A stretch of DNA of 64,000 bases. Source: a virus. Of the stretch, positions 60,730-63,301 are shown one piece after another. The stretch is taken from IMG/VR virus record IMGVR_UViG_3300023179_007063, positions 1 to 64,000 of that record; one strand, 5' to 3'. Positions within the stretch are counted from its first letter, which is position 1, and the number at the start of each line of letters is the position of its first letter. The position numbers and the translations under genes are program-made. The notes below the pieces were generated by a model that made no database searches, was not told the origin of the DNA, and saw only the letters and a program-made list of their open reading frames with translations.

Positions 60730-61545
60730 ATGCAAGACAAGTCGTCCTTCGAGATTCTTCCGACAGGAAAGCCGCACGTTTCTTTCTCTGAAGTGAAACA
60801 GTGGAAGGAGTGCTCCTTCCGACACCACCTCGTTCACGTCAAGAAGCTCGATGTCTTCAAGCCTTCACCCGTGCTAGAGTTCGGTACTGCAGTACACGCG
60901 GCGTGCGAGGACTACCTGTTGACACGCGTCATGAAGGTAGAGATCGCACACGCAGCGATACAGGACGCCTGGAAGAAGAACGAAAATATCGAAGAATTCA
61001 ACGAGCGTTCCCTCAATGAGGCGCTCAGAGATTCTTCTGCCATACTCTCTGAGGTCCCGGCGTTCCTCGATGAGACCTTTCCCGAGTGGACCGTGGTGGA
61101 CGCTGAACACGAACTCTATGAGTCCATCGAGGGTCATCCGCACGCCTTCAAGGGATTCATCGACGGAGTCATCAAGGCGAAGGGCAAGAAGGGAGAGGAC
61201 CTCTACTGGATCCTCGACTGGAAGACCTCTGCGCGAGGCTGGTTCCGCGAGAAGCGGTCAGACGACATGGTGAAGGCGCAGTTGGCGCTCTACAAGAACT
61301 TCTGGCACAAGAAGAATCCCCAGGTCCCGTTCAAGGACATCCGTTGCGGTTTCGTCATCCTCAAGAAGAGTGGTAAGCCTGGTACTCACTGTGAACTCTT
61401 CACCGTTCCCATGGGTGAGGTCCCCATCACGCGGTCGCTCAAGGTGGTGAGTAACATGATCGCATCTGTCAAGCGGGGCATGTCAATCAAGAACAAGAGT
61501 TCATGCACGTACTGTGAGTTCCGAGAGACAGAACACTGTCCGTAA
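60730..61545 (+). CDS. PD-(D/E)XK exonuclease, Cas4/AddB-like with Fe-S staple cysteines
   Basis: SFSE...C, GTAVH, GFIDG, LDWKT, QLALY, CTYC..C. Confidence 0.88.
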   Translation: MQDKSSFEILPTGKPHVSFSEVKQWKECSFRHHLVHVKKLDVFKPSPVLEFGTAVHAACEDYLLTRVMKVEIAHAAIQDAWKKNENIEEFNERSLNEALRDSSAILSEVPAFLDETFPEWTVVDAEHELYESIEGHPHAFKGFIDGVIKAKGKKGEDLYWILDWKTSARGWFREKRSDDMVKAQLALYKNFWHKKNPQVPFKDIRCGFVILKKSGKPGTHCELFTVPMGEVPITRSLKVVSNMIASVKRGMSIKNKSSCTYCEFRETEHCP

Positions 61546-61572
61546 TACTTCAGCGTTGTTTCATTTCATGAG

Positions 61573-61897
61573 ATAGTTCTTATAGAATTATCGACACTGC
61601 AATCCTGAAAGTATGAGTCCAATTTTTTCCATCATGTCAAAAATGCATGCCCACGAGATATGGACAAACGATGCAAAAAGACTGGAAACAATTGCTTCGA
61701 TAGGGTATAGAATCCTCGTCATACGGGAGAGCGAATACAAGAATGGATCTTGGGTTGATAAGCTCGACCGATGGCTGGAGGAAAATGGAAAAGAAAAAGA
61801 TATTGATACTGTCAGACCATCCGTGAACGACCACAGCTCAGCGGATGTAAAATTGGGTGAATTGCTGGAAACTCGTGGGATAGACACCACAGCGTGA
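61573..61897 (+). pseudogene. Eroded Vsr/DUF559-like (EDxHD-type) homing endonuclease
   Basis: Fragments across shifting frames: IVLIE, HCNPE, YESNFFHHVK, MHAHEIWTNDAKRL..GYRILVIRESE. N-terminus and the GDYW part of the core are missing; frame runs over the GT exon 1 into the intron. Confidence 0.6.
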
Positions 61898-63301
61898 CTG
61901 GAAACGGTGAGCGCGAAGGTCAAAAAGTCTTACTATACGACAATCAGCAGCCAAGCTCCTAAGGAGAAATTCTGGAGAAGGTTCAGAGACTACGGTTAGC
62001 CTAAATCAAAAAGACACGGCAATGATCCGACAGCGCCCAACACCAAATCAAGTATGGTGATGATATAGTCCAAAACTTTTTGTAAAGTGAGCACCTCCGG
62101 AGTAGGCACACAGGCCCGATGGCTTGTATCAGGTCTGATAGAAACAGGCAAGTATTCGTTCAGATGCTTCGGCGGAGCGATTAAGCATGACAACTACGAT
62201 ACGGTCGTAGTCAACCCTGACTTCATCATCAAGCCTACAAACGGCTTCGGTGATAGAAATCTTCTACGCAAGACGCTGGCTCAGGTGAAGCCTGATGCCC
62301 TGATGCTGTTTACTGACCCACGTTTCTTCATGTGGGTCTGGGAGATGGAGGACGAGATCCACCAGATGTGCCCAATCGTCTATTGGCACTTGTGGGACAA
62401 TCCTCCCTGGCCTGAGTTCAATCGTCACATCTATGAGTCGACCGACCTCGTCAACTGCATCAACTATCCGACATACAAGATGGTACACGAGAGGTTCCCA
62501 GAGAAGACAAACTACATTCCTCACGCTGTTCCCGAAGATCTATACAAGCCGCTTCCGAAAGAAGACGTTAGGAAGTTCAAAGCAGCGCTCTTAGGCAATG
62601 AAAAGGTCGACCACTTTACGCCGATGTACGTCAGTCGTAATGCGAGGAGAAAAGTTCCGAGCGACATCATAGAGTCGTGGAAGATTTTCTTGGATGACCT
62701 TGAGGCAAAGTACGGCCACAGGAAGGCGACTCTGATCCTCCACACAGACCCACTTGATCAAGAGGGAACAAATTTATTTATGCTTGTCGACCTCTTTGGC
62801 GTGAAAGACAACGTCGTCTTCTCCAAGGAGAGAATAGGCTTCCAGGAGATGAGCACCCTCTACAACGTTTGCGACTGTGTCGTCAACCGGTCTATGAATG
62901 AGGGCTTCGGTCTACCTGTTCTAGAGTCGATTCTATGTGGCAAGCCGCCGATAGTTGTGAAGACAGGCGGTTTGACACGACAGGTATACGACGATGAGAC
63001 AGGTGAAAAATACGGTATCGGTCTGGACCCTGAAGTTCGAACTCTCGCTGGTAATCACTTCGTTCCCTACATCTATGAAGACTTCGTGTCTCACAAGACT
63101 TTCGCAAATGCATTCATGGAGATGTATGAACTCGGTCCTGAGGGGAGAGCGGCACTTGGCAACAAGGCAAGAGAGAGAGCGAAGAAAGAGTATAATCTCA
63201 AGAAAGTCGTCTCTGACTGGGACAACACTCTCGATTCAACGATCTCTAGGTGGAGAGATGATAGAAAGTCCTTCGACAGATGGAGCAAGATAGAACTATG
63301 A
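61785..63301 (+). CDS. Glycosyltransferase family 4, split by group I intron (exon 1 61785-61824, exon 2 62088-63301; 417 aa spliced)
   Basis: GGAGG RBS + ATG 61785. Spliced N-term MEKKKILILSDHP-L-STSGVGTQARW; RNARRK; NEGFGLPVLE. Confidence 0.9.
61825..62087 (+). ncRNA. Group I self-splicing intron, 263 nt, no internal ORF (probably subgroup IA)
   Basis: P1 CATCCGT/GCGGATG with U-G at the 5' splice site; P10 GCTCA/TGAGC; P3 TTGGGTG/CGCCCAA; P4 TTGCTG/CAGCAG; P7 GACTA/TAGTC within GTTCAGAGACTA and GATATAGTCC; P8 CACCA/TGGTG; terminal G at 62087. Confidence 0.95.

Follow-up and report, generated by a model that had tools for sequence, protein, structure and literature searches.

In cyanophage S-PM2, the endonuclease F-CphI and a psbA group I intron that lacks an ORF form a pair for which collaborative homing was described (Zeng, Bonocora & Shub 2009, as reviewed in PMC3984707). 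In the model, the enzyme cuts at the site of intron insertion, with immunity given by the intron (PMC3984707). In phage T4, MobE and the nrdB intron, with its defunct I-TevIII, illustrate trans homing (Wilson & Edgell 2009, PMC2790892). Dassa et al. 2009 (PMC2677866) and Taylor et al. 2011 (PMC3239194) reported on the EDxHD (Vsr-like) family, to which I-Bth0305I belongs. The family is defined by N-terminal NUMOD-type motifs and a Vsr-like domain with residues E, D, x, H, D (PMC3239194, PMC2677866), and free-standing Vsr-like homing endonuclease genes are already known from metagenomes (PMC2677866). The turnover of homing endonuclease genes has also been discussed as an origin of ICP1-type loci (PMC10448857). 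A literature search did not find a published description of the glycosyltransferase (GT) locus presented below.

The window is the whole stretch of 64,000 nucleotides that was analysed. It comes from an IMG/VR viral record of 97 kb with an estimated completeness of about 29%. Region 61549-61897 of the + strand is a pseudogene, the remainder of a free-standing homing endonuclease (HEG) of ~340 aa whose last ~120 codons it retains. It is located between a PD-(D/E)XK nuclease (PDDEXK) gene and a GT4 glycosyltransferase gene, which are separated by a 239-nt spacer in the window. The features of the locus are the following.

60730-61545, + strand: PD-(D/E)XK (Cas4/RecB-like) nuclease gene, Pfam PF12705 (66 bits), left border of the insertion slot.
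61549-61897, + strand: HEG pseudogene, equal to codons ~222-341 of an intact 341-aa gene.
61552-61587, + strand, frame 1: first piece of the stump, SVVSFHEIVLIE.
61556-61562, + strand: TTGTTTC at the junction of the large deletion, kept here as one copy.
61589-61609, + strand, frame 2: second piece, YRHCNPE.
61609-61641, + strand, frame 1: third piece, KYESNFFHHVK.
61640-61897, + strand, frame 2: fourth piece, KMHAHEIW...TTA, then stop.
61777-61782, + strand: GGAGGA, Shine-Dalgarno sequence of the GT gene, as read from the sequence, inside the HEG codons W-L-E-E-N.
61785-61824, + strand: GT4 exon 1, 40 nt, ATG at 61785, encoding MEKKKILILSDHP plus the first base of Leu14.
61825-62087, + strand: group I intron of 263 nt with no ORF, scoring 77.2 bits (E 2e-19) with Rfam RF00028.
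62088-63301, + strand: GT exon 2, GT4 family, Pfam PF00534/PF13692.

Joining exons 1 and 2 gives an unbroken 417-aa GT starting with MEKKKILILSDHPLSTSGVG. The GT genes of more than 100 related phage contigs are 47-80% identical to that of the window, and relatives have the PDDEXK gene conserved in its place immediately upstream of GT. In intron-less relatives, the sequence SDHPLSTSGVG, the most conserved motif of the GT, is uninterrupted. The score of the intron is above the curated threshold of RF00028 (50 bits). Its P1 helix pairs CATCCGU with GCGGAUG, with a U.G pair at the 5' splice site, and its terminal nucleotide is a G (62087). P1 covaries in relatives, with CATGCGT/GCGCATA in L113 and CATCAAT/GTTGATG in L027. 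The window sequence therefore has the score, the U.G pair, the terminal G and the reading frame restored by predicted ligation that identify a group I intron. The intron is intact and presumably still splicing. It has no ORF of its own and adjoins a free-standing endonuclease sequence, as the earlier note had proposed. Outside the window, the same viral record has another group I intron, with 87.8 bits in Rfam (G000:C1:85825-86067, - strand). Moreover, a viral contig of 175 kb has an intron close to that of the window (73% over 232 nt), located inside or after an unrelated gene of 197 aa (L220:813-1042). Because this copy sits at an unrelated gene, this type of intron is not restricted to the GT gene.

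The earlier note had described a frame-broken endonuclease upstream of the intron-bearing gene. The strings that it quoted are found there, IVLIE and YESNFFHHVK in frame 1 counted from 61546, HCNPE and MHAHEIWTND...GYRILVIRESE in frame 2. The last frame is an ORF of 94 aa (61613-61897). It crosses the Shine-Dalgarno sequence and the ATG of the GT gene, contains the whole of exon 1, crosses the 5' splice site and, as the earlier note had also seen, stops inside the intron, at a TGA (61895-61897) located 71-73 nt from the intron start. Pfam gave no match for this 94-aa ORF, even at E<=10. No match was obtained by tblastn against 50,697 phage records, and a DNA search of the same records with the stump region returned generic group I intron cores only. 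Because Pfam and the phage database gave nothing, the family of the stump had to be tested via its relatives.

We found 17 viral contigs with the same GT. In most of them, the PDDEXK gene is followed by an uninterrupted GT gene after ~100 nt. One of the 17, L009, bears the intron (Rfam 68 bits) and has an intact ORF of 341 codons between PDDEXK and GT (L009:615-1640). The C-terminal third of this ORF contains the four pieces of the window in a single frame (...KKILIEFNGDYWHCNPDKYKSDFFHHIKKMCAYDIWHNDAKRLETISSLGYKILVIWENEY...). Thus, the whole HEG is still present at the same spot in related uncultured phages. A database search for the intact protein gave 63 relatives, and the viral and metagenome contig collections each added more than 400 matches. 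A profile made from 24 intact relatives matched the stump at 61577-61870 (E=1.1e-34), and this is its sole match within the 97-kb record; as the record is ~29% complete, an intact paralog may exist in the rest of the phage. In this way, the tBLASTn/HMM check suggested by the earlier note led to the recognition of a nuclease family through the intact relatives, Pfam alone having failed. The last frame of the stump is 82% identical to the C-terminus of P0007, an intact protein of 339 aa, and 94% identical to P0072, an 84-aa gene call of another metagenome.

In intact relatives, three Cys4 modules are followed by NUMOD3 and, at the C-terminus, by a nuclease domain with the Vsr fold. The cysteines of the Cys4 modules (CxxC...CSxxC twice and CxxxxC...CSxxC once) are invariant or nearly so. 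NUMOD3 was identified in the intact homologs with 27.6 bits for a cut-off of 20.4 (PF07460), so that the N-terminal DNA-binding region is of the NUMOD type, with NUMOD3 and not NUMOD2. In the C-terminal domain, the alignment shows invariant D223, E234, G237, D238, W240, H241, C242, K256, W264, D267 and W285. The candidate catalytic positions E, D, x, H, D are E210, D223, N236, H241 and D267. D223, H241 and D267 are invariant among the 24 intact relatives, E210, assigned by alignment only, is found in at least 90% of them, and N236 is at the x position. The Glu that is specific to the family and occupies the position of Phe62 in Vsr is E234. The WLEEN/TGGCTGGAGGAAAATG block, which contains the Shine-Dalgarno sequence in the window, is conserved among intact homologs.

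A single-sequence phmmer search of the PDB with the relative P0001 gave only noise. With the profile, the top matches were E. coli Vsr (1odg, 1vsr, 1cw0) and I-Bth0305I (3r3p), with marginal E values of 0.05-0.09. The AlphaFold (AF2) model of P0001 has a mean pLDDT of 83. Foldseek aligned this model to 3r3p with a probability of 1.0 and a target-normalised TM of 0.76, and VIA-align gave Z 11.7 for 3r3p with 96/97 residues aligned, Z 11.2 for the DUF559-like 3hrl and Z 10.9 for Vsr 1cw0. The Vsr fold is therefore assigned on the intact P0001, of which the window retains just part of the domain. Residues 308-341 of the HEG, encoded over exon 1 and the intron, have a pLDDT of ~30 and are modelled as disordered. 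The tail of the HEG (SSADVKLGELLE) is conserved because the intron nucleotides are conserved. Since they have a Vsr fold, the candidate residues E210/D223/N236/H241/D267 and NUMOD3, the intact relatives qualify as EDxHD-type homing endonucleases under the published definition, in agreement with the Vsr-like EDxHD type suggested in the earlier note. Their N-terminal half is unusual in being rich in zinc ribbons, and site-specific double-strand cleavage of the allele that lacks the element is predicted for them. I-Bth0305I is the best structural match, and this prototype of the EDxHD enzymes is, on the modelled fold, the nearest described enzyme.

Two other assignments of the intact gene were considered. 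Some relatives are named "Vsr" repair genes, but this name is a source annotation only. Relatives are ~340 aa long with a 220-aa Cys4/NUMOD3 extension, as compared to ~150 aa for a stand-alone very-short-patch repair enzyme. In addition, they are polymorphic in presence/absence at one intergenic slot between near-identical phages, unlike a stably inherited gene. A repair gene was rejected on this architecture and polymorphism. An intron-encoded HEG was also rejected, as the HEG starts upstream of the GT start codon. In one contig (L117:2223-4050), two tandem Vsr-like HEGs, 30% and 37% identical to P0001, are located upstream of an intron-bearing GT.

DNA alignment with the intact gene of L009 shows four deletions in the window, of ~690, 11, 1 and 2 bp. 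The ~690-bp deletion extends from just past the PDDEXK stop to codon ~222 and took the start codon with the entire DNA-binding half. Its junction (61556-61562) coincides with TTGTTTC. In L009, this heptamer occurs exactly twice in the region, at a distance of 695 bp, with the first copy 9 nt past the PDDEXK stop and the second at codons 224-226. This arrangement suggests a microhomology-mediated deletion between the two repeats. The model is an inference because L009 is a relative and the ancestor of the window stump was not observed. The 11-bp deletion, at ~61586/7, takes F-N-G and part of D238. The 1-bp deletion is at ~61609. The 2-bp deletion, at ~61640, is in an A-run, AAAAAAA in L009 and AAAAA in the window. 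The 11-, 1- and 2-bp shifts account for the frame order 1/2/1/2 of the stump. The catalytic positions E210, D223 and N236 are gone, the codons of H241 and D267 are retained, and the invariant W240 and W285 are both replaced by R. The window copy no longer has the E, D, x, H, D set. It is dead because E210, D223 and N236 were lost together with the whole N-terminal half. The erosion claimed by the earlier note is thereby confirmed.

Decay of the HEG is recurrent. Three stumps adjoin the intron, starting at codon ~222 in the window, ~226 in L026/L035 and ~269 in L183. The L026/L035 stump is a 120-codon open frame with no start codon. The nearest intact lineages are P0016/P0007 for the window (85/81%), P0004 for L026/L035 (91%) and P0015 for L183. 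The three stumps arose independently, because each is nearest to a different intact lineage. In all three, the 5' part is lost and the 3' part is kept.

The state of the locus was classified in three sets of alleles, ascertained by the GT, by the HEG or by the intron. In the GT-ascertained set (80 viral contigs), a nuclease gene or stump is directly upstream in 5/5 intron-bearing alleles. Two of them have an intact EDxHD-type gene (L330 and L347) and one an EDxHD-type gene cut by the contig end (L323). The remaining two have a stump of ~70 codons (L311, identical to L183) and an EndoVII-like ORF (L372, identical to L187). An EDxHD HEG or stump is found in 4/71 informative intron-less alleles, namely L321, L327, L342 and L318, the last with a weak stump. 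With relatedness ignored, Fisher tests gave p=2.6e-4 for the EDxHD type (4/5 intron-bearing alleles versus 4/71) and, again ignoring relatedness, p=4e-5 for any nuclease (5/5 versus 7/71). The HEG-ascertained set contains many alleles with HEG and intron, including L009, L022, L102 and L201, as well as at least six distinct alleles with the HEG and without the intron. The Rfam intron search was negative at the HEG-bearing L025, L033, L103 and L108. In the intron-ascertained set, the HEG is present in most alleles; L180 has the intron and no HEG, with a sugar dehydratase gene upstream instead.

The earlier note expected intact copies with the same intron at the same locus, which is the case in L009, L022 and many others. 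It also expected HEG and intron to co-occur. The association itself is strong (5/5 in the GT-ascertained set, and the L009/L010 block described below), but it is not exclusive, since intact HEGs also occur without the intron (L025, L033, L103, L108). On a GT tree of 96 alleles, at least nine intron changes are needed. Eight independent pairs are discordant for the intron; the HEG follows the intron in ~5 of them, goes the opposite way in 0 and is tied in 3, an underpowered comparison (median p 0.06). Altogether, an ORF-less intron adjoining a HEG or its stump, with both inherited together, is observed, and the more than 100 sampled alleles of this phage locus span all states of gain, partnership and decay.

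Two pairs of closely related alleles show the units that move. L009 and L010 are 99% identical at the PDDEXK end and 93% identical in the GT. The block made of the HEG, exon 1 and the intron in L009 corresponds to an unrelated 107-nt spacer in L010. The difference between the two is the gain or loss of this block. L342 and L352 have flanks 99-100% identical and an identical GT 5' end, and neither has the intron. Relative to L352, L342 has a clean 1038-bp insertion of the HEG, 4 nt upstream of the GT ATG. The HEG is thus a discrete mobile unit. The intron-insertion sequence is the same in the HEG-bearing L342 and in the HEG-less L352. Because this sequence is unchanged despite the HEG, the intron is not needed for immunity in the L342 lineage. 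There, the simplest source of immunity would be a target disrupted where the HEG itself inserts, ~45 bp away from the intron site.

The slot between PDDEXK and GT is a general insertion hot spot. The "empty" site of L352 (L352:1663-2010; also L343 and L344) has a 116-aa ORF (phrog_3339, E 5e-16). This ORF matches long homing/HNH endonucleases of phages at their C-terminal end only; going by this match, a further HEG has probably left its stump in the slot. In L187, the EndoVII-like ORF (L187:1-288; phrog_1035, E 9e-10) is directly upstream of the intron-bearing GT and replaces the Vsr-like HEG. An HNH reading of this ORF was discarded, as Pfam gave no match and PHROGs places the ORF with endonuclease VII. 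An intron-less relative has a 278-aa ORF in the slot (L001:2554-3390, - strand) with a sub-threshold match to glycosyltransferases of the WecG/TagA type (25.7 bits). The slot content of L180, L365 and L376 is made of sugar dehydrogenase or dehydratase genes.

Inside the GT gene itself, L113 (5060-6199; also L040-L042 and probably L118) has an in-frame intein of ~380 aa, which precedes the NEGFG motif and contains a LAGLIDADG endonuclease (28 bits for LAGLIDADG_3 in Pfam, weak matches to Hint/Intein). Since in some relatives the intein adds to the HEG and the intron, three kinds of selfish element are found in one GT gene. At the intron insertion site, L010, which has neither HEG nor intron, has SDHQL (CATCAATTG, ~170-220) in place of the near-invariant SDHPL. 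The exon 1 of the intron-bearing L027 has the same change together with the compensating guide GTTGATG. SDHQL may be a target-site variant, on this anecdotal evidence.

We consider it very probable that the HEG, exon 1 and the intron moved as a block and that the HEG decayed afterwards. In the ancestor, a HEG of ~1 kb would have been located between the PDDEXK and GT genes. By analogy to I-Bth0305I, F-CphI and MobE, its product would have cut HEG-less alleles near the 5' end of GT. With the HEG-bearing genome as template, repair would then have copied the HEG, exon 1 and the intron as one block, in this predicted direction of transfer. A cut at the intron insertion site would correspond to collaborative homing, and a cut just nearby to trans homing. 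Once the block was resident, nothing would have maintained the HEG intact. The ~690-bp deletion, probably between the two TTGTTTC repeats, would have removed the start and the DNA-binding half of the HEG, and would have been followed by the three small deletions and by substitutions at invariant residues. The 3' stump probably persists because the GT Shine-Dalgarno sequence and exon 1 are inside it and the intron P1 adjoins it, all of which are needed for GT expression.

As to the position of the cut, trans homing, or hitch-hiking, has close to an even chance of being correct. The target would be the insertion point of the HEG, which is at the GT start codon or close to it and ~45-50 bp away from the intron site. 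Insertion of the HEG would itself confer immunity and the intron would be a passenger, as for T4 MobE and the nrdB intron, a published precedent (PMC2790892). The clean insertion of the HEG alone in L342, at 4 nt from the GT ATG on its upstream side and between flanks 99-100% identical to those of L352, argues for this position of the target, and HEG-only alleles are common. Close pairs of alleles, of which only three were discordant, were also compared for a gradient of co-conversion. A 5' drop was seen only in L033/L318, where the first ~100 nt of the GT are far more diverged than the remainder. By itself, trans homing leaves unexplained the rarity of introns with no nuclease neighbour, as well as the convergence of two nuclease families beside the intron.

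Strict collaborative homing, as the earlier note had it, is a tentative reading, clearly short of an even chance. The ancestral recognition site would span ...GACCATCCGT/TGAGCAC..., where the slash marks the insertion point, so that the intron splits the site and protects its carrier, and the enzyme would have decayed after fixation. A distance of 40 nt separates the intron from the GT start, and a nuclease gene in the adjoining slot nearly always accompanies the intron. Of the 51 HEGs in the HEG tree, 35 read into the intron. An unrelated EndoVII-like ORF is in the same slot beside the same intron in L187. The insertion site is in the most conserved GT motif, SDHPLSTSGVG, and conserved motifs are typical homing targets. 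The reading also agrees with the published F-CphI/psbA case (reviewed in PMC3984707). However, alleles that bear the HEG and lack the intron exist in several lineages, and L342 and L352 are identical around the insertion site with the HEG in L342 only, which weakens the proposal that the intron conferred immunity. Comparison of the insertion-site sequences of HEG-/intron-, HEG+/intron- and HEG+/intron+ alleles also gave no target-site signature. By analogy with MobE, a cut nearby, with the intron as a co-converted passenger, would fit the data equally well as the strict version.

A broader form of collaborative homing is doubtful. According to it, the site of the EDxHD enzyme spans the insertion point, and the living alleles at this slot of freshwater phages keep every stage in the birth and death of a mobile intron. 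The stages would be the empty site, the HEG only, the HEG with the ORF-less intron, the decayed HEG with the intron, as in the window, the intron only, and an unrelated nuclease. Because the site of the enzyme would span the intron insertion point, the intron would be its immunity device. In the stage with both elements, the HEG frame already runs across exon 1, ends inside the intron and may be one recombination away from an intron-encoded HEG.

It is very unlikely that the 94-aa ORF (61613-61897) is a genuine small gene for a domesticated fragment of the nuclease domain, such as a binding-only protector or a regulator. The ORF has an ATG and 94 open codons, the 84-aa gene call P0072 is 94% identical, and L026/L035 have kept a 120-codon open stump. 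This reading is difficult to reconcile with the loss of three of the five catalytic positions and of the entire DNA-binding half, and with the change of the invariant W285 to R. The last 34 residues of the ORF come simply from exon 1 and the intron in a different frame, and the model shows them as disordered. The stumps of other phages begin elsewhere and come from different lineages. A promoter/terminator scan of 61300-62200 did not find a promoter-like site.

An assembly or sequencing artefact, with an intact real gene and frame breaks due to homopolymer errors, is hardly conceivable: the 2-bp deletion falls in an A-run, but the artefact is rejected because the ~690-bp and 11-bp deletions are large non-homopolymer events, invariant residues are substituted, P0072 is a near-identical short product from an independent contig, and comparable stumps exist in L026/L035 and L183.

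The stump itself is an ordinary outcome of the life cycle of homing endonucleases. The value of the locus resides in the surrounding allele series. At one phage locus, the same free-standing Vsr-fold endonuclease is found with an ORF-less intron, near-isogenic filled and empty pairs included. The series thus makes directly testable the choice between collaborative and trans homing as well as the proposed route from a free-standing endonuclease to a mobile intron, and is a good experimental entry point. Annotators should be warned that calls of "very short patch repair endonuclease" or small ORFs at such sites are genes of selfish elements or their remains.

The intact relatives share with I-Bth0305I the C-terminal Vsr-fold nuclease (Z 11.7, 96/97 residues aligned to 3r3p). 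They also share the Asp/His/Asp catalytic positions, the Glu at the Vsr Phe62 position (E234 here) and a modular N-terminal DNA-binding region with a NUMOD motif. As here, members of the EDxHD family are found in phages and linked to self-splicing elements, and free-standing genes are also known. I-Bth0305I is encoded inside a recA intron, whereas the relatives described here are free-standing and located upstream of the interrupted gene. Their N-terminal half has three Cys4 zinc-ribbon-like modules and NUMOD3, in contrast with the two NUMOD2 helix-turn-helix repeats of I-Bth0305I. Sequence identity with the solved domain of I-Bth0305I is only ~19% and, unlike I-Bth0305I, the window copy is dead.

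F-CphI has an active site of the Endo VII type (PMC6083498), whereas the relatives have a Vsr fold; the EndoVII-like ORF found in the slot of L187 belongs to the same catalytic family as F-CphI. The cut of F-CphI at the intron insertion site was demonstrated, and the position of the cut is here predicted by analogy. In addition, the reading frame of the HEG covers exon 1 and terminates within the intron at the present locus, and the window copy is a stump. The likeness to MobE lies in a neighbouring free-standing endonuclease that would move an otherwise immobile intron by co-conversion, with a cut that may be off the insertion site. MobE is an HNH nickase, and in T4 the intron-encoded endonuclease is defunct, whereas here the free-standing gene has decayed. 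The ICP1 terminase locus (2023, PMC10448857) likewise has a very short first exon with a free-standing HEG immediately beside it. It involves another nuclease family and another host gene, and stages of decay were not described in that work. Collaborative or trans homing, the type of system to which the window locus belongs, is thus already known, and the locus is a further example of it, clear rather than unprecedented.
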